From sequence record MN148435: a DNA stretch of 64,000 bases. One strand, 5' to 3'. The translations under genes were made by a program, and so were the position numbers. This DNA is from Shigella phage SGF2. Positions within the stretch are counted from its first letter, which is position 1, and each line of letters starts with the position of its first letter. Positions 5,361 through 63,596 of this stretch are shown here, piece by piece. The notes beneath the pieces were generated by a model. That model was not told the origin of the DNA, made no database searches, and worked only from the letters and a program-made list of their open reading frames with translations.

Positions 5361-7604
5361 ATGGCTAAGCAAAAATATAGTGAAGAGGTGTTGGACGAGT
5401 TACGTGTTGACCTTCAACGTCGTTTTAATTACGCTCAAGGTTACGTTGACATGGCTGTTAAGGGCTATGCTCGTGAAGCTTGGGAATATTTCTATGGTAA
5501 CTTACCTGCACCAGTAACTGCTGGCAGCTCTAGTTGGGTAGATCGTACTGTTTGGGAATCTGTTAACGGTACACTGCAAGATATTATTAACGTATTCTGT
5601 TCTGGTGACGAAGCAGTTACCTTCGTAGCTGATAACCAACAGGACTCTGATGCTGCTGATGTAGCAACTAAACTAGTTAACCAAATTCTTCTGCGTGACA
5701 ATCCGGGATACAATATTATCTCCTCTGCTGCACAAGAATGTCTGGTTACTCGTAACTCTTTTATCAAATATTATTGGGATGAGCACACTTCTACTCAAAC
5801 TGAAGAAGCTGAAGGTGTACCACCGGAAGCATTAGCTGCATATGTTCAGGGATTAGAAGCTGGTGGACTTAAGAATCTGGAAATCTTCACTGAAGAAAAT
5901 GAAGATGGTACAGTAGATGTTAAAGTTACTTATGAACAAACTGTTAAACGTGTGAAAGTTGAATACGTTCCTTCAGAGCAAATCTTTGTTGATGAACATG
6001 CTACCTCTTTTGCAGATGCACAATACTTCTGTCATCGTGTACGTCGTTCTAAAGAAGATCTGGTTGCTATGGGCTTCCCTAAAGATGAGATTGAAGCATT
6101 CAACGACTGGACAGACACGATGGATACCACTCAATCTACAGTTGCTTGGTCTCGTACTGACTGGCGTCAGGACATTGATGCTGATATTGGTACAGATACT
6201 GAAGATATCGCTACTATGGTTTGGGTTTATGAGCACTACATCCGTACTGGTGTTCTAGACAAGAATAAAGAGTCTAAACTCTATCAGGTTATTCAAGCTG
6301 GTGAGCATATCCTTCACACTGAAGAAGTAACTCACATTCCGTTTGTAACCTTCTGTCCGTATCCGATTCCGGGTTCCTTCTATGGTCAGTCAGTCTATGA
6401 CATTACGAAAGATATTCAGGATTTACGCACCGCGTTAGTTCGTGGTTATATTGATAACGTCAACAATGCTAACTATGGTCGATACAAAGCACTAGTTGGT
6501 GCATACGATCGTCGCTCTCTGCTTGATAACCGTCCCGGTGGAGTGGTTGAAATGGAACGTCAGGACGCTATTGACCTGTTCCCATACCATAACCTACCTC
6601 AAGGTATCGACGGCCTCCTAGGTATGTCTGAGGAGCTTAAAGAGACACGTACCGGTGTAACTAAACTTGGCATGGGTATCAACCCTGATGTGTTTAAGAA
6701 TGATAACGCTTATGCAACCGTAGGCTTGATGATGAATGCCGCACAGAACCGTCTCCGTATGGTATGTCGTAACATTGCTCACAATGGTATGGTTGAATTG
6801 ATGCGTGGTATTTACAGCCTTATCAGAGAAAACGGTGAAGTTCCTATTGAGGTACAAACCCCTCGTGGTATGGTTCAGGTTAATCCGAAACAATTACCAG
6901 CTCGTCACAATCTTCAAGTTGTTGTAGCTATCTCTCCTAATGAGAAAGCAGAACGTGCACAGAAACTGATTAGTTTGAAACAGCTGATTGCAGCAGATGC
7001 ACAGTTAGCACCTCTCTTTGGTTTGGAGCAAGACCGCTACATGACTGCACAGATCTTTGAGTTGATGGGTATTAAGGACACTCACAAATACCTACTGCCT
7101 CTGGAACAGTATCAGCCTCCTGAGCCGTCTCCGATGGAAATCCTCCAGCTCGAGATGACTAAAGCACAGGTTGAGAACGTACAGGCTTCTTCTCAGAAGA
7201 TGATTGCTGATGCATTCGACCAACGTGAACGTACTACATTCGAACAGCAGAAAGCTGCGGATGAATTAAGTCTGCGTCAGGAAGAGTTGCAGTTCAAGCA
7301 AGAAAATGCAGCAGATGCTATGACTCTGGAAAACCGTAAAGAAGATAACAATGCAACTCTGGAACAAGCTAAGCACAAGTTAGCTCTTATGCAACAGCAG
7401 GTCCGTCAGTATGAGTCTGTACTGAAAGAATTGCAGATGGTTATGGAGCATCAGGTAGACCAAGAGAAGATTGTTCAGCAATCTCGTGTTCAGGATAAGA
7501 CTTTGGAACTCCAGAAGAAAGAAGCAAATGTAACTAAGAAAGAGCAACAAGCTTCTCTCAAAGATTCACGGATTCCAGGCAAACGTCTTGGAAGTAAAAA
7601 GTAA
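5361..7604 (+). CDS. portal protein
   Basis: 747-aa ORF directly downstream of terL with long C-terminal coiled-coil-like region; size and position. Confidence 0.6.
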   Translation: MAKQKYSEEVLDELRVDLQRRFNYAQGYVDMAVKGYAREAWEYFYGNLPAPVTAGSSSWVDRTVWESVNGTLQDIINVFCSGDEAVTFVADNQQDSDAADVATKLVNQILLRDNPGYNIISSAAQECLVTRNSFIKYYWDEHTSTQTEEAEGVPPEALAAYVQGLEAGGLKNLEIFTEENEDGTVDVKVTYEQTVKRVKVEYVPSEQIFVDEHATSFADAQYFCHRVRRSKEDLVAMGFPKDEIEAFNDWTDTMDTTQSTVAWSRTDWRQDIDADIGTDTEDIATMVWVYEHYIRTGVLDKNKESKLYQVIQAGEHILHTEEVTHIPFVTFCPYPIPGSFYGQSVYDITKDIQDLRTALVRGYIDNVNNANYGRYKALVGAYDRRSLLDNRPGGVVEMERQDAIDLFPYHNLPQGIDGLLGMSEELKETRTGVTKLGMGINPDVFKNDNAYATVGLMMNAAQNRLRMVCRNIAHNGMVELMRGIYSLIRENGEVPIEVQTPRGMVQVNPKQLPARHNLQVVVAISPNEKAERAQKLISLKQLIAADAQLAPLFGLEQDRYMTAQIFELMGIKDTHKYLLPLEQYQPPEPSPMEILQLEMTKAQVENVQASSQKMIADAFDQRERTTFEQQKAADELSLRQEELQFKQENAADAMTLENRKEDNNATLEQAKHKLALMQQQVRQYESVLKELQMVMEHQVDQEKIVQQSRVQDKTLELQKKEANVTKKEQQASLKDSRIPGKRLGSKK

Positions 7605-7613
7605 GGACGTCGA

Positions 7614-7850
7614 ATGAACATTAGGCATCAATTCAATAAAGAGCACGCCGCCGCTTTGGCGGCTCTCAATCTTAACGGCAGTCTTGACGCAGCATTAGAG
7701 GCATTGAAAGAAAGACTCATGACAGAGATAGTTCAAACTGAACCTCATGAGAATAAGAAACGCGAAGATTGTTATCAAAAGTATAAAATGGTGGGTAGCT
7801 TAAAAGAGGTCATAAAAGCTGCTATCAATAGTGCAGGAGATGTTTCATAA
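7614..7850 (+). CDS. hypothetical protein
   Basis: 78-aa ORF; stop overlaps next start (TAATG). Confidence 0.4.
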   Translation: MNIRHQFNKEHAAALAALNLNGSLDAALEALKERLMTEIVQTEPHENKKREDCYQKYKMVGSLKEVIKAAINSAGDVS

Positions 7851-8935
7851 TGCCACAAGATAATTATATTGACCCGAACGATTTTAAATCTTTCCTCCAA
7901 CTGGATGACCTGAAAGGTTCTTTTAAAGAAGAGCTTGGTCGATTAGAATCTGAACAAGAACCAGAAGTGGACATTGACGATGAGTTCCCGGAAGATACCG
8001 GTGACAACTTCGACTTTGATACCGACCTTCTCGGTGAAAGCGATGAGCTTAAGTTCGAAGATGAAGATGGTTGGGAAGATCATGATGAGGAAGGCGAAGT
8101 CGAAGAAGATGGGGATGACTCTGATGAAGGTGATGAAAACACTGAAGCAGAAGAGGAAGACTCAAGCGATGCAGGATATGAAGATGATTCTGCTGACGGT
8201 GATGGTGAAGTCTTTGATGTAGACTACGAAACCGTTATCACCCTTCCTGATGGACGTGAGATGACTATTGAAGAACTCTCCAATGGCTATCTTACTGGTG
8301 CTGACATGACTGAACGAGAATCAACTCTTCAGCGTCACATGGAAGCATTTGAGGAACGTGTAGTAGGTTTGAAGGATGTATTAGAATTAGCGTCTTTAGA
8401 AGCAGACCGAGTAATTGAAGATTACAATGGTTTTGATTGGGACAAGCTTGCAGTAGAAGATCCTCAAGCATATGTTGAAAACAAACGTTTCCTAGAGAAG
8501 TACACAGCTCGTCGTAACCAGCTTGAACAGGCTCAGATGCGTGTTAAGCAGGAAGCAGCAGCTAAAGAGCAGGAAGCTTTCCAAGCCAAGAGTGTTGAGT
8601 GCGTTAATATTCTGAAACGTGAGATTCCAAATTGGGATGAAAACTTATATCAAAACTTAATGCAATATGCAATTGACTTAGGTGCTACTGAAGAAGAAGT
8701 ATTGAAGGAAAACCGTCCGTCTATTTTCCTAGCTCTCCACAAAGCATACCAATTTGATAAAGGTAAGCAGCAGGTGATGGCTAAGATTAAACGTCCCGGT
8801 GCTCCACGCAAGGTTGTGAAGTCTGATGCTGCAAAGTCTCGTACTTCCAATAAGCCAGACAACGCTAAGGTTGCCAAGGCATTCGCAGAGGGTCGCGTTA
8901 GTCACGAAGACGCATTCAAATTCCTCGTAGATTAA
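7850..8935 (+). CDS. scaffolding protein
   Basis: 361 aa between portal and capsid; highly acidic D/E-rich N-terminal half, helical C-terminal half. Confidence 0.5.
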   Translation: MPQDNYIDPNDFKSFLQLDDLKGSFKEELGRLESEQEPEVDIDDEFPEDTGDNFDFDTDLLGESDELKFEDEDGWEDHDEEGEVEEDGDDSDEGDENTEAEEEDSSDAGYEDDSADGDGEVFDVDYETVITLPDGREMTIEELSNGYLTGADMTERESTLQRHMEAFEERVVGLKDVLELASLEADRVIEDYNGFDWDKLAVEDPQAYVENKRFLEKYTARRNQLEQAQMRVKQEAAAKEQEAFQAKSVECVNILKREIPNWDENLYQNLMQYAIDLGATEEEVLKENRPSIFLALHKAYQFDKGKQQVMAKIKRPGAPRKVVKSDAAKSRTSNKPDNAKVAKAFAEGRVSHEDAFKFLVD

Positions 8936-8976: not shown

Positions 8977-10038
8977 ATGGCTAATCCAACTTTATTTGTA
9001 TCGTATGACCAGAATGGTAAAAAACTTTCTTTTGCTAACTGGATTTCTGTTCTGTCCCCTCAGGATACTCCGTTCGTATCTATGACCGGTAAAGAGTCTA
9101 TCAACCAGACTATCTTTAGCTGGCAGACCGATGCACTGGCAAGCGTTGATGGTAATAACGCACACGTCGAAGGCTCTCGTGCTGAAGACGGCGAAATGAA
9201 ACCGACCGTTATCAAGTCTAACGTTACTCAGATTCTGCGTAAGGTTGTTCGTGTTTCTGACACTGCTAACACCACCGCTAACTACGGTCGTGGTCGTGAA
9301 CTGATGTATCAGCTGGAGAAGAAAGGTAAAGAGATCAAGCGTGACCTCGAGAAAATCCTTCTGTCCGGTCAGGCTCGTACCGACGTTCTGGCTGACCAGT
9401 ACCTGACTAACTCTGCAACTGATCCTGCTGTTGTTGGTCTGAATGACACCCATGCAGCTCGTAAGACTGGTGCATTCCAGTTCCTGTGTGCTCACGGCGG
9501 TCTGGCTGGTGGCGTTGTTGACAAAACCAAGAACGGTCCTGCTGACCCGGATACTGGTGCAGTAACTGTTAAAGTTGCACAGAACGCTTCTAACCCGACC
9601 ACTAACATCGGTTTTGACGAAGCTGATATCTTTGATATGACTCTGCAACTGTACACCGCTGGTTCTGAAGCAGATATCATCATGATTAACCCGGCTCATG
9701 CTAAGATCTTCGCTGGCCTGCAAGAAAACACTCAGGGTTCACGTAAGCGTATCTTTGAGAACACCAAGCAGTTCATCTACGAAGTTAACAGCATCACTGA
9801 CCCGCTGGGCCAGAGCTACAAAATCATCGTTAACCGTTGGATGCCTACTGATGCAGTTTACTTCTTCCGTAGCGCTGACTGGACCCAGATGGTTCTGCGT
9901 GCTCCGAAACGTACTGAACTGGCGAAAGATGGTTCTTACGAGAAGTGGATGATTGAAATGGAAGTTGGTCTGCGTCACCGCAACCCGTATGCTTCCGGCG
10001 TTCTGTTCACTGCTGCGGGAAAGGTAGCGGCGGCGTAA
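8977..10038 (+). CDS. major capsid protein (short form)
   Basis: 353-aa ORF after scaffold with strong codon regularity; ends ...TAAGKVAAA-TAA. Confidence 0.65.
   Translation: MANPTLFVSYDQNGKKLSFANWISVLSPQDTPFVSMTGKESINQTIFSWQTDALASVDGNNAHVEGSRAEDGEMKPTVIKSNVTQILRKVVRVSDTANTTANYGRGRELMYQLEKKGKEIKRDLEKILLSGQARTDVLADQYLTNSATDPAVVGLNDTHAARKTGAFQFLCAHGGLAGGVVDKTKNGPADPDTGAVTVKVAQNASNPTTNIGFDEADIFDMTLQLYTAGSEADIIMINPAHAKIFAGLQENTQGSRKRIFENTKQFIYEVNSITDPLGQSYKIIVNRWMPTDAVYFFRSADWTQMVLRAPKRTELAKDGSYEKWMIEMEVGLRHRNPYASGVLFTAAGKVAAA
10017..10023 (+). other. candidate -1 programmed ribosomal frameshift slippery heptamer G_GGA_AAG
   Basis: X_XXY_YYZ pattern in capsid frame, 5 codons before the capsid stop; -1 frame is open from 9957 to 11078. 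Confidence 0.5.
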
Positions 10039-11078
10039 CAGTAGATACCGTAACTGTTAGCCCTTCGTCGGTTGCAAGTCTTCCGACGGGGGCTACTCAG
10101 CAGTTTACAGCTACAGCAGAAATGAGCGACGGCTCCACTAGCACAACTGGATTTGATTGGTCCGTTGAAGGCGGTGGGGCTGTTTCTGTTTCTGGGCTAT
10201 ATACTGCACCGAGTGCGTCGCAAGAAACCCCAGCAACTATTACGGCTACTAAAGGCGGTAAAACAGGTACTGCTATAGTTCAATCTATTTACAAACCAGC
10301 TACTATCGAAGCTAAAGCTAACATCACAGGCAAAGTAGGCGGAAGCACTACTGCTTTTTCTACAATGTTCACAGCAACTGATTCCTCAGCAGGAGATTAT
10401 TCTTTCGTAGTCACCCCTTCTTCTGCGGGAACAGTCAGTGCATCAGGCGTTTTGACTTTAAGTAATAACGCAACTGGCACAGTTACTGTCAAGGCTACCC
10501 ATAAGACCCAATCTGGGGTAGAGGCTACTGTAACGTTCACAGGCGTAGTCGCTAAAGCAGGCATTACAGGTAAGTCTGTTACCGGTAAGATTGGTGGAGA
10601 TACTGTTGCATTTGATGATTTGTTTACAGTAACCAACTCCACTGCATCTAACTACAGCTTTGTATCGAGCCCTTCTGGTATGACGACCTCTATCAACACA
10701 AATACTGGTCTTGTTACTTTGTCAGCTAATGCTACAGGGGATGTTATTATTACTGCTACTCATAAAACACAGACTGGTGTGACGGCTACTGGCACAATTA
10801 GTTCAGTAACTCCTAAAGCTACCATCACAGCTAAGACTGTAGAGGCTAAAGTCGGTGGTGATATAGTGTCTTTTGCTGAAATGTTTACGAGCAACAATGC
10901 TGCAACCGCCTTTAACTATGTAGTAACTCCGACTGCTGCGGGTACAGTGGATAGCTCTGGTAGTCTCACTCTTGCAGACGACCCGGGTGCTGAAACTGTC
11001 ACAGTTAAGGCAACACATAAATCTCAGATTATAGTTACAGCTACTTGTTCTATCCCTGCTACCCCTAAAGTAGTATAA
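10017..11078 (+). CDS. capsid C-terminal extension with four Ig-like (BIG2-type) domains, reached by -1 frameshift from capsid frame
   Basis: -1 frame open from 9957, i.e. before capsid stop; repeated ~90-aa units each ending TVKATHKTQ / IITATHKTQ / TVKATHKSQ. Confidence 0.55.
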   Translation, partial: GKGSGGVTVDTVTVSPSSVASLPTGATQQFTATAEMSDGSTSTTGFDWSVEGGGAVSVSGLYTAPSASQETPATITATKGGKTGTAIVQSIYKPATIEAKANITGKVGGSTTAFSTMFTATDSSAGDYSFVVTPSSAGTVSASGVLTLSNNATGTVTVKATHKTQSGVEATVTFTGVVAKAGITGKSVTGKIGGDTVAFDDLFTVTNSTASNYSFVSSPSGMTTSINTNTGLVTLSANATGDVIITATHKTQTGVTATGTISSVTPKATITAKTVEAKVGGDIVSFAEMFTSNNAATAFNYVVTPTAAGTVDSSGSLTLADDPGAETVTVKATHKSQIIVTATCSIPATPKVV

Positions 11079-11114
11079 TGCACAGTAACTAGTAAAGAGG
11101 TTATATAAGAATAA

Positions 11115-11143
11115 AGCCGCCTTCGGGTGGCTTTTCTTGTTTT
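11115..11143 (+). terminator. intrinsic terminator (UUCG-loop hairpin)
   Basis: agccgcc-ttcg-ggtggct followed by tttcttgtttt. Confidence 0.55.
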
Positions 11144-11165
11144 AAGACCTATACAAGCTAGTGTG

Positions 11166-11207: not shown

Positions 11208-11960
11208 ATGGCAATGCCAGATGTTCAATACCCCATCAATACCTATGGGTGGCTAAAGAAGGCCGTGGCCCTCTGGGCAGATAGGGACGATGACGAATTT
11301 GTTAATCAAATTCCAAACTTTATTAACTTTGCAGAGAAAGAGATTTATCGTAATTTACGTATTCCTCCTCTGGAAAAAGAAGTATATTTAGATATTAAAG
11401 ATGGAGTAGCTTACATTCCTCCTGATTACTTAGAAGCTCAATGGATGATGAGAGCCAGAGATGGTACAATCTTCCAAGTAACATCTCCTGAAGAGATTAG
11501 CTATCGTAGGCAGCATGGAACAATTAACCCATCTCATTGGAATAACCAACCTGTTAACTTTGCTCGTTTCGGTAGTCGTTTCATTTTCTACCCTAGCATT
11601 GAAGCAGATACTCCTGTTTATCCTGATGATGGAAGTCCTTTGATTCCAGCAGAAAACTCAGTAATTCTTAGTTATTATGCAGACCCACCGGAATTCCATG
11701 AAGATACAGATACCAGTGCTATCCTTACTATTGCACCAGAACTTCTTCTGTACTTCACCCTACGTCATGCTTGTCTCTTTGTTCAAGATGATAATGGTGT
11801 TCAGAAATGGTCAGCATTAGGAAAAGCTATCCTTGATGAAATGGTAGAGCAGAATAAGAAACAAGAGTACTCAGGTTCACCTATCGCAATTCCGAATAAC
11901 ATGACTCGGCTTCAGAGCAGCTTGCCTGATATTTATGGTATTCGTACTTCTCGTGTATAA
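11208..11960 (+). CDS. hypothetical virion protein
   Basis: 250-aa ORF in structural module; AGGAGG RBS. Confidence 0.45.
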   Translation: MAMPDVQYPINTYGWLKKAVALWADRDDDEFVNQIPNFINFAEKEIYRNLRIPPLEKEVYLDIKDGVAYIPPDYLEAQWMMRARDGTIFQVTSPEEISYRRQHGTINPSHWNNQPVNFARFGSRFIFYPSIEADTPVYPDDGSPLIPAENSVILSYYADPPEFHEDTDTSAILTIAPELLLYFTLRHACLFVQDDNGVQKWSALGKAILDEMVEQNKKQEYSGSPIAIPNNMTRLQSSLPDIYGIRTSRV

Positions 11961-17880: not shown

Positions 17881-18684
17881 TTGGCTATCGAAACTAATGC
17901 GGTAGTTGTTACCGATTTAAACCCACTCTATCCTAGAGATAGGGATTATATCTATGAAGGGGCGGCTCAAATCCGCCTCATTAAACAAACACTACAGAAC
18001 ACATTCCCCAATGTCACAGAACCAGTTGATATTGATTCTGACACTTTTAAGATTATGTCAGAGAAGCTCAAGTTTACTGGTGATGCAATGGATGTTGGTG
18101 GTCTGATGATTAAGAACGTCACTCCGGGGACTGGTGACAAAGATGTTGTTACTAAGGGTCAGATGGAAGCGTTCATGAAGAACTGGATGGAGAATAAACT
18201 CTATCGAATTGGCTCTTACTACATCACTGAAGAAGATATTAACCCCGGTGATTCTATCTCCTTAGGGTTTGGCTCTTGGGCTAAAGTGACTGGTGTTATC
18301 ATGGGTACTGGTGTTGTAAACCCTGATGGTTCTGTTCCTAATGCTCAGAGAGTTGAGTTCCAAGCAGGCGGTACAGGTGGTCGTGTCTTTAATACCATTC
18401 GTACAGAGAACGTACCTTTGATGACAGTTAATGGCTCCAGCTTCTCCTTATCCAGTAACACCCACAGTCACAACATGGTGTTTGGTCGTGGGGATGCTAG
18501 CGGTCATAACAGCTCACCTAACTGGTACAGTCCGGGTAGTGGTTATAGTCAGAGAACAGAGAATGACACACACTCTCATACAATCTCTGGTAGTGTGAGT
18601 CTTGGTCGTGATGACATTTCTCGTCAACCTATTAACACTTTGCCACCATTCAGAGCGGCTCACATTTGGAGACGTATTAGCTAA
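17881..18684 (+). CDS. tail fibre-like structural protein
   Basis: 267 aa, G/S/T-rich; position in tail module. Confidence 0.4.
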   Translation: MAIETNAVVVTDLNPLYPRDRDYIYEGAAQIRLIKQTLQNTFPNVTEPVDIDSDTFKIMSEKLKFTGDAMDVGGLMIKNVTPGTGDKDVVTKGQMEAFMKNWMENKLYRIGSYYITEEDINPGDSISLGFGSWAKVTGVIMGTGVVNPDGSVPNAQRVEFQAGGTGGRVFNTIRTENVPLMTVNGSSFSLSSNTHSHNMVFGRGDASGHNSSPNWYSPGSGYSQRTENDTHSHTISGSVSLGRDDISRQPINTLPPFRAAHIWRRIS

Positions 18685-28293: not shown

Positions 28294-28302
28294 TAATGTA
28301 TA
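28294..28302 (+). promoter_or_regulatory. TAATGTATA promoter-like motif
   Basis: exact 9-mer 38 nt upstream of ATG 28341, which has AAGGAG RBS. Confidence 0.45.
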
Positions 28303-28340
28303 TAGGGGGTAGGACATTTTTATTTATAAAAGGAGACGTT

Positions 28341-31300
28341 ATGGCTAACATTAAACCGTGGGAAGAAGCTTCCAAAGCTCCTGCGTATCTGAATGCCTCT
28401 CCGGAGCAACAAGCTCAAATGAGAGAACAATATAAGGCAGCAGGTGGCTCTATTCCTGAGGAACAACCAGTAGCACAACCACAACAAGAAGAACGTGGTG
28501 CTATAGGTGAGTTTGCTCAAGGTGTGTCAAATGCTCTTCAATCTGGTGGTGCAAATATTGCAGCTAGTGCTGCTAAAGGTATTGGTGGTTTAGTTGAGAT
28601 TGGTGAGAATCTAGCTGGAGCACAAACTAGTTATGGTAAGCGTATACAAGAGAACTCTCAGAACCTTCTGAAAGAACGTATGGATAAGATTGAGGATGGG
28701 ATTGGTAAAACTGTCGGTCAGTATGCTGGTGTTGCTGGTGATATCGGTTTGACAGTTGCTAACCCATTGGCTGCTGCTGCTATCATCGCAGGTCGTGAGA
28801 CAGGTCGTGCATATGCAGACCAAACCCCTGAAGAGGGAGAAGATAAGTCTATTCTAGATGCAGCCTTAGTTGGTGGTGCTAACTATGCGGCTCAGAGAAT
28901 CCTTCCGGGTGCTGTCGGTACAGCTGAATCCACACTTGGACGTATTGGTCAGAACGTTGCTAGTAACGCAGTGGCTGGTGCTAAAGGTGGTGCTCTTGTG
29001 GGTGCTGCTGAAGCTCAGAATAAGCACGGAGATGACACAACCTTTGCTAATGTATTAGAAGGTGCTATCGAAGAAGGTGCTATGGGTGCTGCATTTGGTG
29101 GTGCAGTTGGTGGGGTTCATGGTTTGATTAGCCGTCCGGGTTCTGCTGTCTTCAAGAATACTCCAGAGTATGCGAAGACTGATATTGCTGCTGATGATGA
29201 ACTAATTCGTAGTGCTAAGAACATTGATGAACTGAAAGAAGCTTACTCTAAAGCTGAAACTGCTAACGCTGCTTCTGCTCTGAATCTTCTGGATGAGAAT
29301 GGATTCCGTATTACAGATGCTGTTGCTGTGGATTCTCCTGCCGCTCAGCGTATTCTTAATACAGACCAAGCCCGTGCTGAGAAAGCTGCTTCTGTTCAGA
29401 AAGAACATTCTAACATTCCGGGCCTTAACCCTTTGGCTTCTCCTGCTAAAGTTCGTGGTAAAGCATTCGCTGATAATGAGCACAACCAGAAGCAAGCTGT
29501 CGCTATGAAAGACGCAATGGCTGATTACACAAAGGATAACACTAAAGCTCTTACAGATGTTCTGGATAATCTTGATCGTGAGTTAGTCTCTCTCCGAGCT
29601 TCTGGTGACTTTACTGGCAGTCCGATTGATATTAAGAATCGCACACAAGCTGACCGTGATTTCATTGATGCTTACAAGACTTTCTATAATGAAGCAAATC
29701 GATTCAAAGCTCGTGATGGTGAAGACTTTAACAACTTCGTAGAGAAAGCTACTGAACTACAGAAGATGGCTGATAATGTTTCTCCAGAGATGAAACAAGC
29801 TATTGGTGGGTTGAAGAAACTGAAAGGTATGCCTGAAGGTTTTAATCCTATTCAAGATGCTTATACTCTGAACAATACAGCTAAGTTCATGAGCAACCAA
29901 GACCGTGGTTGGACTTCCCTGACTGATGATGGCTTCCGTGAGGCTTCTTCTCCTAGTCTGGTTATGAATACACTTGGTGCTGCTAAGTATGCTCTGAATC
30001 GCTTCTCTTCTCAGCGTGCTCGCTCTCAACGTGTTAAACAACAAGAATCCAACAGTGAAGCTATCCGCTCTCTAGCTCGTGGTGATTTGGAAGTTGCTCG
30101 TGCTAAATCTACTGCTGATGAAGCTCGTGCTAAAATGGAAGAAGAACCAGTTGTTGATGACATTAAATTTAAGACGCAAAATGACGTGGAAACCGAACCG
30201 GTTCGGGAGCCTTCTTCTAGTACTGTGACGGAAGAAAATCTTCCTTCTTCTGCTCCTCAAGAAACTCCTCTTACAGCTCGAGATTTAGTTGCGCAAAGAC
30301 GCGCTATCCGTCAGGCTGAACAGCGTCGCGCTGAAGAAGAGGCATTGGCTGCTCAAGAAGCTCCGGTCGAACAAACTCCACAGGCTGAACCTCTCCCTGC
30401 TCGTAACCCTCTAGAGGAGCGTCGTGCAATGGAACAGCAACGTGCTCAAGAAGAGGCCGCACAGGCTCCAGAACCAACCGTAGAGGAACCAACAGTCAAA
30501 GCTGAGCCATTACCTGCCCGTGCTCCTAAAGCTCCTAAGGAAGCTGTACAGGACGTTAAACCGGCAAGTGGTGTAGAACGTTTAGCTGCTATGTCCAGTG
30601 CTGCTCGTCAGGCTACTAAAGATCGTGCAGAACGTTTTGCTCGTTCTCTGTATTCCAAGGCTGCTAAGGCTAAAGCTACTGCTGAAAACTTCTTGGCTTA
30701 CAAGGGTGATCCTAAAGAGTTGATGCGTCGTATTCGTCAGGAAGATAATGCTATCAACACTGAACGTCATGAAGAGATGGCTCGTAATCAGCTAGCTTCT
30801 CAGCAAGGTATTGCTACTGCTAAGAACAACACTGTACGAACTAATTTTGCTGAATGGGTTAAGGAACGTGGTCTGCCAGAAGACATTGCTACTAAGGCAT
30901 TACGTGCTGAAGAAAAAGGTTTAGGTGGGAACGTTACTAACTTGGATAGTCTGAAACGTCGTGCTGAAAGATTGTATCAGAAGCAGCGTGAGGATGAGTT
31001 TGATAGGTTGTATCAACAAGCTCTAGAAGAGAACAAAGCTTTCGATAAGAAGGATGCTCCTAAACTGGTTGACCAGAAGAAAGAGCTTCAGTCTGAGATT
31101 GATACTTTGATTGATTCAGAACCTTTACGTCCTGCTCAGAAAGATGCTATGCGTAAGCTGATGAATGATTATGTAGATGGGAAGTTTAAATCTTCAGAGA
31201 AGGCTGGTAGGGAAGAGGCTTTGGAAGTGGGTCAGATGAAGGATATTTGGGATGGGTTTATTAACACCTATAACAGAGAAGTGAATGCCTTCAACAAAGC

Positions 31301-32762
31301 TAACAAGAACTCTCAATACGAAGCTGCTGCTAAACACTTGCAGGCTCGTGAAGAACGTCTTGCTACTCTGAGAAATAAAGCTCAGGCTCGTTCAGATGCT
31401 AAGGCTGCTGTTGAGAATGAACGTAAAACTCTAGAGGCTATTGCAGCTCAGAAGAGTGAGATTGAGAAGATGATGGAAGGCTTACCTAAGTCTGTTCGTG
31501 AAGCTCAGGAATCTCGTACATTGAAACAGTTGGCTGCTCACCATGATAAGAACTCTCCAGTTCCTCCAGAGAAGTTCCGTAGCTATATCGAACGTATCCA
31601 TAACGCCGAGTCAGATTACCTTGATCGTCAGCGTCGTTTAACTGATGCAGAGGAAGATGCTCGTCAGGCTAAATGGAACAGGATGTATGAGCAAGCGGAA
31701 GAGATGGACCGTAAGTTTGATATAGACAAAAAGGTTAAGCGTAGTGAAGCGCTTAAAGAGGCCCAAAAGCGTGAGAATGACCTTATGGCAGTACAACGTC
31801 AACGTGACGACATTCATCGTCGACTGATGCACACTTTGGAAGATAAGGGCATATCTAGAGAGGATGCTGAAGCATTTGCTGGTTCCTACATGGATAACCG
31901 TTATGCACTTCTTGATAAGCCTATGACTCCTACTGAACATCAGAATGCTCGTTCTCGTATTGAGGCTGATGTTGAGAAGTTTGCTAAGAAGTACGAATCA
32001 ATGACTCCTATCGAGAAAGAGATTGTTAAGGTTACTGGAGATACTGAAGGTAAGCTTGATAACTTGGATGCGGATACTAGGAAGGCTGTTGAGGAGGCTC
32101 AGAAGGTTGACTCTGATATTAAGAAACTGCAAGAGGAAGAGTTGGAGATGGAGAAGGTTCGTTCTGCTCTGCCTGACGATGAAAGATCTCAAGCAAGTTC
32201 TGATATCTTGGAAAGTATCAAACAGCAGGAAGAAGCCTTTGCTGATAAAGCAGAGAAAGCTTTCTTGAATGGGAAGAGCTTGGATGAGTTAGCTAGTGTG
32301 GCTGAAGTTTTAGACAGGGTTCATGGTGCAGATAAGGCTGGTAACAACCGTCGCTTTGTACGTGCATTGCAGACTGCTGCTGAAAACAAGAAGAAGTATG
32401 GTGATAATCCGGTAGCTTGGTTTAGTGCTGATGATTATTCTGCCATTGCTAAACTTGGTGCTTCTTCCGCAGGTGGTAACAAATCCAGAGCACTGGAGAA
32501 GATCTTTGGTTCTACAGCTGAACAAGCTAAGAGTAAGTTGCTTGGCAGGGATGATGTAGCGAAGATGAGACGTGTAATTGAAGAGAACCCTGATATTAAG
32601 ATTCCTTCTTACAAGACAACGAATCGTACTGAGTACTTGCAGTTCTTGGAGAAGTTTAATGACGAAGGGAAGCCGAAGATTAAACGTGGCTCATTGTCAG
32701 AGAAGCTTGAACGCAGTAAGCGTCAATCGAGACTCCGTGTAAGAGTTCGACCTAAGGAGTGA
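28341..32762 (+). CDS. large internal virion / ejection-type protein
   Basis: track ORF from ATG 28296 overlaps promoter motif; ATG 28341 has AAGGAG RBS; 1474 aa, helical, with AEPLPAR repeats. Confidence 0.5.
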   Translation: MANIKPWEEASKAPAYLNASPEQQAQMREQYKAAGGSIPEEQPVAQPQQEERGAIGEFAQGVSNALQSGGANIAASAAKGIGGLVEIGENLAGAQTSYGKRIQENSQNLLKERMDKIEDGIGKTVGQYAGVAGDIGLTVANPLAAAAIIAGRETGRAYADQTPEEGEDKSILDAALVGGANYAAQRILPGAVGTAESTLGRIGQNVASNAVAGAKGGALVGAAEAQNKHGDDTTFANVLEGAIEEGAMGAAFGGAVGGVHGLISRPGSAVFKNTPEYAKTDIAADDELIRSAKNIDELKEAYSKAETANAASALNLLDENGFRITDAVAVDSPAAQRILNTDQARAEKAASVQKEHSNIPGLNPLASPAKVRGKAFADNEHNQKQAVAMKDAMADYTKDNTKALTDVLDNLDRELVSLRASGDFTGSPIDIKNRTQADRDFIDAYKTFYNEANRFKARDGEDFNNFVEKATELQKMADNVSPEMKQAIGGLKKLKGMPEGFNPIQDAYTLNNTAKFMSNQDRGWTSLTDDGFREASSPSLVMNTLGAAKYALNRFSSQRARSQRVKQQESNSEAIRSLARGDLEVARAKSTADEARAKMEEEPVVDDIKFKTQNDVETEPVREPSSSTVTEENLPSSAPQETPLTARDLVAQRRAIRQAEQRRAEEEALAAQEAPVEQTPQAEPLPARNPLEERRAMEQQRAQEEAAQAPEPTVEEPTVKAEPLPARAPKAPKEAVQDVKPASGVERLAAMSSAARQATKDRAERFARSLYSKAAKAKATAENFLAYKGDPKELMRRIRQEDNAINTERHEEMARNQLASQQGIATAKNNTVRTNFAEWVKERGLPEDIATKALRAEEKGLGGNVTNLDSLKRRAERLYQKQREDEFDRLYQQALEENKAFDKKDAPKLVDQKKELQSEIDTLIDSEPLRPAQKDAMRKLMNDYVDGKFKSSEKAGREEALEVGQMKDIWDGFINTYNREVNAFNKANKNSQYEAAAKHLQAREERLATLRNKAQARSDAKAAVENERKTLEAIAAQKSEIEKMMEGLPKSVREAQESRTLKQLAAHHDKNSPVPPEKFRSYIERIHNAESDYLDRQRRLTDAEEDARQAKWNRMYEQAEEMDRKFDIDKKVKRSEALKEAQKRENDLMAVQRQRDDIHRRLMHTLEDKGISREDAEAFAGSYMDNRYALLDKPMTPTEHQNARSRIEADVEKFAKKYESMTPIEKEIVKVTGDTEGKLDNLDADTRKAVEEAQKVDSDIKKLQEEELEMEKVRSALPDDERSQASSDILESIKQQEEAFADKAEKAFLNGKSLDELASVAEVLDRVHGADKAGNNRRFVRALQTAAENKKKYGDNPVAWFSADDYSAIAKLGASSAGGNKSRALEKIFGSTAEQAKSKLLGRDDVAKMRRVIEENPDIKIPSYKTTNRTEYLQFLEKFNDEGKPKIKRGSLSEKLERSKRQSRLRVRVRPKE

Positions 32763-62399: not shown

Positions 62400-63596
62400 T
62401 TATTTTCCTAAAAATAATCCGCTCATAATACCATCCCATTCAGAGGATGGAAACACCGAATACTCTGAACTTTGGTCCAGAGTTCCGCTACTGAATCGCT
62501 GAACAATATTATAAATATTGAACATATCTTTAGTCTCAGCGCGATAAGCGTAGACTAATCTGTCAGCTGTTCTTTCATCTTTAGATACCCGACGAGCAAA
62601 GGTAACCAGAAGGTTGTCACCTTTGAGTATTTCTGACTCATCTTTTACTAGATCAGGGTGCATAACCGGCAAGAACATCGAGTTATTAACTCGTAATTCT
62701 GCTGTTTCATCATTCTCATAATGAATCCACTTAAAGTCTTCATCACGGAAGTGACCGCATCCATCTCTGTACGACTGCTGACGCCAAGGCACTTTAAACG
62801 CTTCAGTATACTTATCAGCCATACCAACTGTAAATAGCGACGCTGGGAAGATACAAGCATCCCAATCATTACCGACCAGAGTTGCTTTCGTTTCACCCAA
62901 GAGGTTAGTGTAAGTGCTAACCATTCGTGAGTAAACGTAAGCCTGAAGAATTGTCCAGCCTTCAACCAACCATTTATGAAGGAAGGTTTCAACTTGACTC
63001 TCTTCATCTTCACAATAGAAGGTTCGATCTAACATCAAATAGAACAGACAACGATCAGCAGGAACATTCTCAGTTGCTACCCCCATAAAACCTTTCTCGT
63101 GCCAGCGTAAACAGGAGGGACGATCTTTGTCCACAAATGCTTCCATAGCTTCCAGTACAGCACGAGGTGTGGTTTGATGTTCAGGATTTTTATTATTCCA
63201 ACGATCAATGTTATTCTTAGGAGGTGTGTCTTCATCTTCATACGAACACCAACTTAAAGCTTCAGCTACGTGCTTTTCATCACGCCAGCGTCTAAAACCT
63301 AACATCTTCATGTGAGTTCCGGAGTTCCAGATATGCTTGATTTTACACATATCCATCTCTCGGCTTAACAGGAACTCTTCCCCATCAGCACTACGAACGT
63401 TAGCTTCTTCATGCCACACTCGAACGTGCATATTCCACCCATGAGTTGCCTCATACATGTTAGGGTCGAAGTATTCATCTTCGTCATCGTCTTCATCAAC
63501 GCCACCGTTATAGTTGCGAAGCTGAAGGAACCCATAACAAGGAGGGTTGACCGTTAAAACATTACCTTCAGTATCTTCTAATGTTACTGGAAACAT
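62400..63596 (-). CDS. hypothetical protein
   Basis: 398-aa ORF with acidic stretch DEDDDEDE. Confidence 0.45.
   Translation of the reverse strand: MFPVTLEDTEGNVLTVNPPCYGFLQLRNYNGGVDEDDDEDEYFDPNMYEATHGWNMHVRVWHEEANVRSADGEEFLLSREMDMCKIKHIWNSGTHMKMLGFRRWRDEKHVAEALSWCSYEDEDTPPKNNIDRWNNKNPEHQTTPRAVLEAMEAFVDKDRPSCLRWHEKGFMGVATENVPADRCLFYLMLDRTFYCEDEESQVETFLHKWLVEGWTILQAYVYSRMVSTYTNLLGETKATLVGNDWDACIFPASLFTVGMADKYTEAFKVPWRQQSYRDGCGHFRDEDFKWIHYENDETAELRVNNSMFLPVMHPDLVKDESEILKGDNLLVTFARRVSKDERTADRLVYAYRAETKDMFNIYNIVQRFSSGTLDQSSEYSVFPSSEWDGIMSGLFLGK

Follow-up and report, generated by a model that had tools for sequence, protein, structure and literature searches.

A -1 frameshift at G_GGA_AAG very probably adds four Ig-like domains to a minority of major capsid protein subunits in Shigella phage SGF2

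The analysed window, a stretch of 64,000 nucleotides from Shigella phage SGF2 (MN148435), represents the late structural module of a Kuravirus, that is, a phiEco32-like podophage of E. coli and Shigella (Table 1). The major capsid protein gene has an ATG with a Shine-Dalgarno (SD) duplex energy of -6.5 kcal/mol, and its product matches the Pfam family SU10_MCP (PF17236) over the full length of the profile (E=9.4e-77) and the PHROG major head protein family (E=5.6e-118). It also shares ~99% identity over 352 aa with the SU10 capsid protein of known structure (7z45; E=8.8e-236, residues 1-352). The capsid gene is overlapped and followed by a long open frame in the -1 register, from which the product of the first ATG has been deposited as a separate 318-aa protein of Shigella phage SGF2 (100% identical). 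An intrinsic terminator lies beyond this frame, and the record of phage Paul carries a terminator annotation at the equivalent position. Searches of the whole window with Rfam (gathering thresholds) and ARAGORN returned no match.

Table 1. Features of the capsid gene, the slip site and the Ig-like extension in the window
Feature	Position	Strand	Details
Major capsid protein gene, zero frame	8977..10038	+	ORF; 353 aa, 38.7 kDa, HK97 fold
Slippery heptamer G_GGA_AAG	10017..10023	+	P-site GGA 10018-20, A-site AAG 10021-23; X_XXY_YYZ in zero-frame register
-1 frame extension	10023..11078	+	351 codons and TAA (11076-11078); would be translated by shifted ribosomes only
Ig-like domain 1 (Big_2)	10035..10286	+	Extension residues ~5-88; Pfam Big_2 28.6 bits; model strands in residues 7-86
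Zero-frame stop TAA of the short (major) capsid form	10036..10038	+	Heptamer, then four sense codons, then TAA
Conserved extended RNA hairpin in the extension ORF	10050..10108	+	Core is the second hairpin of the preliminary description (10066-10088)
First ATG of the -1 frame	10122..10124	+	Start of the 318-aa 'bacterial Ig-like domain protein' according to gene callers; probably not real
Ig-like repeat R1	10296..10553	+	Extension residues ~92-177, ...TVKATHKTQ...; repeat alignment; all-beta in model
Ig-like repeat R2	10557..10814	+	Extension residues ~179-264; 48% identical to R1; model
Ig-like repeat R3	10818..11066	+	Extension residues ~266-348; 39-40% identical to R1 and R2; model
Intrinsic terminator 3' of the extension ORF	11113..11144	+	9-bp GC-rich stem, T tract

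The -1 frame is closed by a TGA codon at 9954-9956 and open from 9957 to 11078, extending 1040 nt past the capsid stop codon, and the ORFs and their translation thus bear out the limits of both frames given in the preliminary description. The same description had proposed G_GGA_AAG as a slippery site with AAG in the A site, and this register can be read directly from the sequence, the zero-frame codons 3' of the heptamer being GTA GCG GCG GCG TAA. The anticipated isoform of about 700 aa is likewise recovered on translation: the predicted fusion comprises 349 + 351 = 700 aa (72.9 kDa), with the junction ...TAAGK/GSGGVTVDTVTV..., for which TAAGKGSGGVTVDTVTVSPSSVASL is an example of a chymotryptic junction peptide. 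The first 76 extension residues are free of Lys and Arg, and trypsin would here release a ~7.5-kDa peptide of a size missed in standard runs. GGGAAAG occurs nine times in the window versus 7.3 expected occurrences, and the heptamer alone is therefore not above chance. Its combination in frame near a gene end with an open -1 frame of 351 codons is the sole such case on the + strand, and among 28 heptamers lying in frame within ORFs of 100 aa or more, counted on both strands, only one has a long -1 continuation. Even by itself, G_GGA_AAG ranks as highly shift-prone in E. coli (PMC5009743).

The extension scores 36.3 bits against Pfam Big_2 (PF02368), with domain 1 alone above the gathering cut-off of 22.8 bits, while R1 (21.1 bits, a full-length match) and R2 (16.6 bits) fall below it and R3 has no Pfam match. 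The extension as a whole matches the PHROG family 'Ig domain containing protein' (E=4.8e-86). An AlphaFold2 model of the extension (mean pLDDT 95.4) consists of four beta domains, and its Foldseek matches are tandem Ig arrays, including the Big_2 domains of LigA. As modelled, all four domains, R1-R3 included, fold as Ig-like beta sandwiches. Four Ig-like repeats of ~90 aa had been described previously; the number of Ig-like domains agrees with the model, but they comprise one Big_2 domain and three different repeats of ~86 aa (39-48% identical), and the TVKATHKTQ signature, while present, is confined to the latter and absent from domain 1. Tandem Repeats Finder identified no DNA-level array between positions 9900 and 11200, the divergence of the three repeats (39-48% amino acid identity) being too great, and the repeat structure is therefore demonstrated on the protein level.

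No start codon (ATG, GTG or TTG) other than the ATG at 10122 occurs in the -1 frame between positions 9957 and 10200. For this codon, the SD duplex energy is +1.2 kcal/mol, compared with a median of -8.5 kcal/mol for 23 ORFs of the window, and it thus lacks an SD sequence. It is also not conserved: clades other than that of the window have AAA or CTA in its place, and it is absent from the phiEco32 and L023 clades. In the model, it corresponds to extension residue 34, where the third strand of domain 1 ends, so that initiation here would be expected to delete 33 residues and, with them, three of the beta strands of this domain. When the variable alignment columns between 10039 and 10121 are sorted by codon position of the -1 frame, 7/27, 4/28 and 20/28 are found at the first, second and third positions, respectively, a substitution pattern indicating that the 83 nt upstream of the ATG evolve as -1 frame coding sequence. 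The suggestion that ATG 10122 is not the true entry point is thus upheld by the missing SD sequence, the lack of conservation and the location within domain 1, and the search for an independent start driven by a ribosome binding site yielded only this one codon, which has no such site.

None of the 14 distinct Kuravirus junctions, drawn from isolates and metagenomes, deviates from the heptamer; two further metagenome pattern matches (L032 and L033) were unrelated chance matches and were dropped. Extension lengths among the Kuravirus relatives are 178, 179, 180, 264, 351, 372, 437, 443 and 545 aa. In more distant SU10_MCP lineages, Ig-like domains also lie in the -1 frame, preceded by G_GGA_AAG, G_GUA_AAG or C_CCA_AAA, and these functional equivalents of the heptamer occupy the same place as the slip site in the window. 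In the 7-11-like phages and the metagenomic proteins P0041 and P0042, a capsid paralogue is instead fused in frame to Big_2 or to the same repeat family. Within the SU10_MCP family, four different heptamers and gene duplication may be interchangeable ways of meeting the need for two isoforms, and Ig domain number, ranging from one to six, may represent a fast-evolving adhesion dial.

Two potentially stimulatory hairpins had been proposed downstream of the heptamer, and both inverted repeats exist, aacagt/actgtt at 10037-42/10053-58 and cgtcgg/ccgacg at 10066-71/10083-88. The second forms the core of the conserved extended hairpin, which has a free energy of -27.7 kcal/mol (z -5.1) equalled by none of 200 shuffled sequences. 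The equivalent fold in phiEco32 has a z-score of -3.7, and RNAalifold recovers the hairpin with three pairs compensated on both sides, one pair appearing as G-C, U-A and A-U. The hairpin begins 26 nt 3' of the heptamer and 11 nt 3' of the zero-frame stop, however, outside the usual stimulator distance of 5-9 nt 3' of the heptamer that was applied here, and the stimulatory role ascribed to it is not borne out by this spacing. The hairpin formed by the first repeat (10037-10058) was rejected: the region 10024-10065 has a z-score of -0.9, with 34 of 200 shuffles equally good, all seven pairs are invariant and hence uninformative, and the 3' arm is taken up by the better extended hairpin. A stem-loop that has been published as surrounding the slip site (Mirzaei 2014, CTGCTGC...GCGGCGG) was likewise discarded; it has a z-score of -1.9 and no compensatory changes, two of its pairs are broken in 3-4 of the 14 sequences, and its 5' arm would lie inside the ribosome during slippage. 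With no significant structure found at 5-9 nt from the heptamer (10024-10065) and no SD-like element found upstream of it, the efficiency of the shift may be low.

Taken together, these data indicate that a minority of the capsid subunits very probably gain four Ig-like domains through -1 ribosomal frameshifting at G_GGA_AAG. Most ribosomes would terminate at the TAA codon at 10036-10038, giving the capsid protein of 353 aa with its HK97 fold. A minority would slip back by one nucleotide on 10017-10023, with tRNA-Gly re-pairing from GGA to GGG and tRNA-Lys from AAG to AAA, and would read the -1 frame to 11078, producing a capsid protein of 700 aa (73 kDa) with a C-terminal Big_2 domain and three Big_2-like repeats. 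The central claim of the preliminary description, a -1 frameshift fusing the capsid protein to Ig-like domains, is thus sustained by the start codon, substitution and conservation evidence and by the fusions in relatives. The shift rate would be in the range of a few per cent if the site behaves as the same heptamer does in lambda G/GT, and applying the lambda value of ~4% to the 715 capsid subunits of SU10 would give roughly 30 long copies per capsid. The Ig array probably projects from the outer capsid surface and may confer weak adhesion to carbohydrate-rich surfaces, as is generally proposed for phage Ig-like domains.

The addition of Ig domains by a -1 frameshift in the capsid gene is already known and well documented in Kuravirus. 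Capsid forms of 38.5 and 55.4 kDa, the latter fused, were identified by mass spectrometry in SU10 (PMC4281155), and the minor capsid protein of Privateer is present in virions (PMC7881722). A passage of the latter paper cites reports of both products for phiEco32 and SU10, and the GenBank note of phage Paul also reports two phiEco32 forms. The Paul record itself contains a joined CDS with the note 'Frameshift at GGGAAAG', and the frameshift has been described likewise for YF01 and 'other group phages' (PMC9965538). By analogy with these close relatives, from whose literature this is taken, the fused protein of the window would be made and be present in virions.

Gene callers and several GenBank records instead treat the Ig-like ORF as an independent gene (318 aa in SGF2, gp12 in phiEco32 and a hypothetical protein in Ptacy1479), and in the SU10 cryo-EM study, too, gp10 is discussed as a predicted Ig-like protein in its own right (PMC9509320). 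Translation from ATG 10122 would then supply a free decoration protein of 318 aa (31 kDa), bound to the capsid non-covalently. This is very unlikely given that the ATG lacks an SD sequence, has no alternative in the frame and is missing in the phiEco32 and L023 clades, that the start would sacrifice three strands of domain 1 and leave the -1 frame coding evolution of the 83 nt upstream unaccounted for, and that relatives contain in-frame capsid-Ig fusions and SU10 the fused mass (PMC4281155). Termination-reinitiation was rejected because the -1 frame holds no ATG, GTG or TTG between 9957 and 10122, and stop codon readthrough because its product would remain in the wrong frame. Slippage of RNA polymerase on GGGAAA, which would yield an mRNA lacking one base or carrying two extra ones without involvement of the ribosome, would result in a nearly identical protein, and transcriptional slippage does serve certain phage and IS genes, but the homopolymer runs at this site span just three bases and much longer runs of A or T are needed at known sites of this kind (PMC5009743). 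The heptamer is furthermore an exact, in-register tandem-slippage site, and the same heptamer has been proven to act on the ribosome in lambda (PMC3296357), making transcriptional slippage the least probable of the explanations considered, with hardly any weight.

The long form might also be made without being a functional virion component in this phage, representing a dispensable or decaying accessory as has been proposed for SU10. The 10B protein of T7 is dispensable, which was counted in favour of such an explanation. The later cryo-EM reconstruction of SU10 revealed neither extra density on the capsid nor a long band (PMC9509320), a lack which has been ascribed to a reported premature stop codon in the -1 frame of that phage (PMC9965538). 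In the window, however, the -1 frame is intact over its 351 codons and its domains are conserved, under coding constraint and modelled with a pLDDT of 95. The heptamer is invariant in the examined relatives, and independent lineages retain this organization or have a duplicated paralogue that bears the fusion. A long form without a function in the virion is given only a very slight chance, equal to that of the independent gene.

A broader and more speculative reading, which is considered rather improbable, is that the Kuravirus cassette includes a previously unreported regulatory RNA, the conserved, covarying hairpin of 59 nt (10050-10108); the family-wide interchangeable routes to two isoforms and the variable dial of Ig domain number are a separate part of this reading. 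At its non-canonical distance of 26 nt from the slip site, the hairpin would lie just in front of a ribosome that has paused on the zero-frame stop codon, and it could tune the ratio of the capsid forms or shield the sparsely translated mRNA of the extension. In practical terms, the annotation calls for a correction, with the 318-aa 'bacterial Ig-like domain protein' and the capsid gene combined into a 700-aa -1 frameshift product. The long isoform is likely a surface-adhesion module in a group of phages that are employed against pathogenic E. coli and Shigella. Otherwise near-identical phages vary sharply in how many Ig domains they carry, and this could affect binding to the host surface or to mucus. 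The existing understanding of phage recoding is unchanged by the cassette in the window.

The closest counterparts are phiEco32 gp11/gp11-12, SU10 gp9/gp9+10, Paul CPT_Paul_009/010 and YF01 gp8, with which the window shares 93-100% capsid protein identity, the identical GGGAAAG at the same codons and the -1 direction (PMC4281155, PMC9965538), as well as a homologous first Big_2 domain, a common repeat family and a terminator after the extension. The extension length alone differs, with 351 aa (Big_2 and three repeats) in the window, 178 aa (Big_2 and one repeat) in phiEco32 and 545 aa (Big_2, four repeats and an extra C-terminal domain) in Paul. The E. coli podophages T7 and T3 likewise produce a minor, C-terminally extended capsid form (10A/10B) by a -1 shift near the end of the capsid gene, with slippage quoted at about 10% (PMC9965538) and an extension that is Ig-like in T3 but not in T7 (PMC5009743); their capsid family is, however, unrelated by sequence, the slip site is different and the extension is much shorter. 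The G/GT genes of lambda contain the identical G_GGA_AAG with a zero-frame stop shortly downstream, at which about 4% of the ribosomes shift in a tRNA-Lys(UUU)-dependent manner (PMC3296357), but here two segments of a tail-assembly chaperone are joined and the product is absent from the virion. Recoding also appends a C-terminal Ig-like domain to the major head protein of Lactobacillus phage A2 and the capsid and tail proteins of Listeria phages A118, A500 and PSA, on the same principle that a fraction of a major structural protein is extended (PMC5009743, citing Fraser et al. 2006), although the hosts, capsid families and slip sites are others, there is usually one domain and the shift in PSA is +1. 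Salmonella phage SE131 (7-11-like), Cronobacter phage GAP52 and P0041/P0042 also possess an SU10_MCP capsid protein in two isoforms, with paralogues bearing C-terminal Big_2 or 'ITGKVGG...KATHK' domains as in the window, but they encode them in two separate genes without a slip site, the isoform ratio thus being set by gene expression rather than recoding. Tandem Ig-like domains are also displayed on the capsid by T4 Hoc and other free decoration proteins, for which weak adhesion to glycans or mucus has been proposed. While Hoc is a separate polypeptide on the finished T4 capsid, the Ig-like domains in the window would form a covalent part of the capsid subunit.

The major capsid protein of the phage is, on its sequence matches, the 353-aa ORF preceding the extension; it matches Pfam SU10_MCP (E=9.4e-77) and the PHROG major head protein family (E=5.6e-118) and shares ~99% identity over 352 residues with the solved SU10 capsid protein 7z45. 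DNA similarity places the phage in the genus Kuravirus (phiEco32-like), with Escherichia phage Ptacy1479 as top match (93%), and the gene lies within a podophage late module on the + strand, listed below with the distant capsid relatives. An intrinsic terminator occurs 3' of the extension at about 11113-11134, and one is likewise annotated in phage Paul. Neither tRNA genes nor, at gathering thresholds, Rfam families were found across window positions 1-64000, the frameshift region included.

Late-module genes of the window and putative -1 frameshift arrangements in distant capsid relatives
Feature	Position	Strand	Signal	Predicted -1 product	Remark
Portal gene	5361-7604	+			name from annotated relatives
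Small ORF	between portal and scaffolding genes	+			
Scaffolding gene	7850-8935	+			name from annotated relatives
Major capsid protein, 353 aa	8977-10038	+			
Adaptor or gatekeeper gene	11208-11960	+			name from annotated relatives
Tail-fibre genes	downstream of adaptor/gatekeeper gene	+			names from annotated relatives
Privateervirus (L015, L016)			G_GGA_AAG immediately 5' of TAA	I-set + Big_2	
Three IMG/VR genomes (L009-L011; L009:4412-4520)			G_GUA_AAG	two Big_2 domains	82-90 kb
Lahexavirus (L012, L019)			G_GUA_AAG at capsid C-terminus	one I-set domain	
Escherichia phage PJNS034	L021:3385-3789		C_CCA_AAA	I-set-type domain, 132 aa	

Tandem slippage on the heptamer G_GGA_AAG at the end of the capsid gene, constituting a -1 programmed ribosomal frameshift, would very probably yield a minor form of the capsid protein, 700 aa long and ending in four tandem Ig-like domains. 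The sequence analysis supplies the slip signal, the reading frames, a -1 frame that has no usable start of its own, evidence of coding constraint, conservation among relatives and the predicted fold. The preliminary description had proposed such a fusion, and codons and stops bear out its reading of the frames: the -1 frame is closed by TGA at 9954-9956 and then open from 9957 to TAA at 11076-11078, while GGGAAAG at 10017-10023 falls in the canonical X_XXY_YYZ register (capsid-frame codons GCG GGA AAG GTA GCG GCG GCG TAA), with the stop four sense codons downstream. The first codon after a -1 slip is GGT at 10023, giving the junction ...FTAAGK-GSGGVTVDTVTV..., to which the junction predicted earlier (...TAAGK-GSGGVTVDTVTV...) corresponds exactly. 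The fusion comprises 349 + 351 = 700 aa (72.9 kDa), the short form having a mass of 38.7 kDa.

The heptamer alone is not enriched in the window (nine GGGAAAG observed, 7.3 expected). Of the 28 in-frame sites that fit X_XXY_YYZ (Y = A or T) and lie in ORFs no shorter than 100 aa, only the capsid site has a long open -1 frame on the + strand, continuing for 351 codons and 1040 nt past the zero-frame stop. No Shine-Dalgarno (SD)-like element was found 5' of the heptamer. G_GGA_AAG is rated highly shift-prone in E. coli (PMC5009743), and the same heptamer supports ~4% shifting in lambda G/GT (PMC3296357). By analogy, the shift rate may be a few per cent; at lambda's ~4%, the 715 subunits counted for SU10 (PMC9509320) would include ~30 long copies per capsid. 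On the minus strand, a 119-aa ORF (62648-63007) contains T_TTA_AAG in frame, 49 codons short of its stop, and its -1 frame is open for 130 codons; this probably reflects mere overlap with the reading frame of the next gene.

The 318-aa product of the ORF starting at ATG 10122 has a 100% identical counterpart deposited as 'bacterial Ig-like domain protein [Shigella phage SGF2]'; that ATG is the only start codon (ATG, GTG and TTG considered) contained in the -1 frame from 9957 to 10200. That this ATG opens an independent gene is nevertheless very unlikely, and the earlier view that it is not the real entry point is upheld. Anti-SD pairing 5' of it is +1.2 kcal/mol, as against -6.5 for the capsid gene and a median of -8.5 kcal/mol for the 23 same-strand ORFs that reach 100 aa. 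In its place the phiEco32 and KBNP1711 clades have AAA and the metagenomic locus L023 has CTA, and the ATG encodes extension residue 34, inside the first Big_2 domain (residues 7-83) and preceded by three strands in the predicted structure. Between the capsid stop and the ATG (10039-10121), variable columns number 7/27, 4/28 and 20/28 at -1-frame codon positions 1, 2 and 3, a protein-coding signature indicating that ribosomes read the -1 frame ahead of the first ATG; judging from the sequence, only those arriving from the capsid gene could do so. A vestigial, unexpressed ORF is similarly improbable. Transcriptional slippage, which would place the shift in the mRNA itself, is given as little weight. 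Two further + strand ORFs, 28296-32762 (1488 aa) and 18055-18684 (209 aa), also lack an SD match at their first ATGs (-0.8 and -0.2 against the median of -8.5 kcal/mol); their true starts may lie elsewhere, or they may be translationally coupled to the gene before them.

Two hairpins had been put forward as possible stimulators of the frameshift. The stretch 10024-10065, which holds the first (10037-10058), folds no better than shuffled sequences (z -0.9), and the seven pairs of this hairpin are invariant among the junctions and hence comparatively uninformative. The second (10066-10088, z -3.6) is real and sits at the core of an extended hairpin spanning 10050-10108 (+ strand, inside the extension ORF; dG -27.7 kcal/mol, z -5.1) that is also returned by RNAalifold and has an equivalent in phiEco32 (z -3.7). 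Across Kuravirus clades its pairing is kept despite two-sided changes in three pairs, one of which is seen as G-C, U-A and A-U; in the author's reading of the alignment, a Ser codon at this pair changes synonymously at its third position in step with a non-synonymous change in a Pro/Gln/Glu/Leu codon. The hairpin starts 26 nt 3' of the heptamer and 11 nt 3' of the zero-frame stop, beyond the usual stimulator spacing of 5-9 nt, making a classical stimulator role doubtful. It is not mentioned in the cited Kuravirus papers, where a different stem enclosing the heptamer is proposed (PMC4281155); that stem was rejected, as it lacks compensatory changes and 3-4 of the 14 sequences break its pairing.

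The extension as a whole matches Pfam Big_2 (E=5.5e-9). Domain 1 alone scores 28.6 bits, above the gathering score, while the repeats R1 and R2 that follow it give full-length yet sub-threshold matches (21.1 and 16.6 bits) and the third, R3, gave no match in the Pfam Big_2 search. These three repeats of ~86 aa share 39-48% pairwise identity and the motif ...ITGKVGG...F..MFT...KATHKTQ..., and are too diverged to be detected by a DNA tandem-repeat finder. An AlphaFold2 model built with 35 homologues (mean pLDDT 95.4) has four all-beta domains, which Foldseek matches to tandem Ig-domain arrays in the PDB (e.g. gp210, hemolin, Sidekick and Dscam) and to Big_2 domains in LigA of Leptospira (two domains superposed with rmsd 4.4-4.7 Å at 23-24% identity). 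The four Ig-like domains described earlier thus stand as folds, but comprise one Big_2 domain and three copies of a related repeat. The array may be displayed outward and serve in weak adhesion.

GGGAAAG is kept in all 14 distinct Kuravirus junctions from isolates, IMG/VR and metagenomes, three or four codons ahead of the capsid stop. The extensions measure 178, 179, 180, 264, 351 (the window), 372, 437, 443 and 545 aa, reflecting a Big_2 domain with one to four repeat copies; in L023 a further segment of ~90 residues separates the Big_2 domain from the repeats, and the Paul-type extension has an additional C-terminal domain. Repeat number varies among otherwise near-identical phages (L001-L008 and L022-L031 compared with 10023-11078), and the repeats occur in differing combinations, the last in the window being nearly identical to the last of Ptacy1479 and L025, which suggests recombination between repeats.

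Distant capsid relatives (42-66% identity) share the design with other signals. In L009-L011 a very stable structure (-49 kcal/mol and z -5.9 in L009) begins 6 nt 3' of the heptamer, with two compensatory pairs across the three genomes. The frameshift appears unannotated in Aeromonas phage LAh_9 (L019:3412-3690), recorded only as a separate 74-aa I-set CDS, and the PJNS034 record (capsid 42% identical, heptamer one codon ahead of the stop) has a separate hypothetical protein. In L014 (4421-4555), A_AAA_AAG one codon ahead of the capsid stop precedes a Pro/Val/Lys-rich -1 extension of 42 aa with no recognisable domain. The slip site is absent in the 7-11-like Salmonella phage SE131 (L018:1485-4261) and Cronobacter phage GAP52 (L020:2492-4629), where the second of two tandem capsid paralogues is fused in frame to Big_2 domains; L013 groups with them in lacking the site and having tandem paralogues, the second fused in frame. 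In the metagenomic proteins P0041 and P0042, a capsid paralogue is in frame with the window's own repeat family ('ITGKVGG...KATHK'). Such natural fusions are independent evidence that the Ig domains work as covalent C-terminal appendages of the capsid subunit. Duplication of the capsid gene and frameshifting look like two different ways of arriving at a pair of capsid isoforms.

The frameshift is a known feature that was correctly recognised, and the practical value of the finding is an annotation correction for the SGF2 genome. In GenBank, the two ORFs of phage Paul are joined, with a note that gives 'Frameshift at GGGAAAG' and cites the same for the PhiEco32 major capsid protein (PMID: 18294652). 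In SU10, with the same heptamer, head protein forms of 38.5 and 55.4 kDa were identified by mass spectrometry (Mirzaei et al. 2014; PMC4281155), a minor capsid protein is reported in Privateer virions (PMC7881722), and two isoforms, with a size range for the extension, are described for 'YF01 and other group phages' (PMC9965538). By analogy with these relatives, the fused protein would be made and present in SGF2 virions. Minor capsid density was not seen by cryo-EM of SU10 (PMC9509320), which has been attributed to a premature stop in the -1 frame (PMC9965538). Ig-like domains are added to structural proteins by frameshifting in T3 gene 10, Lactobacillus phage A2 and Listeria phages (PMC5009743), which are textbook examples.
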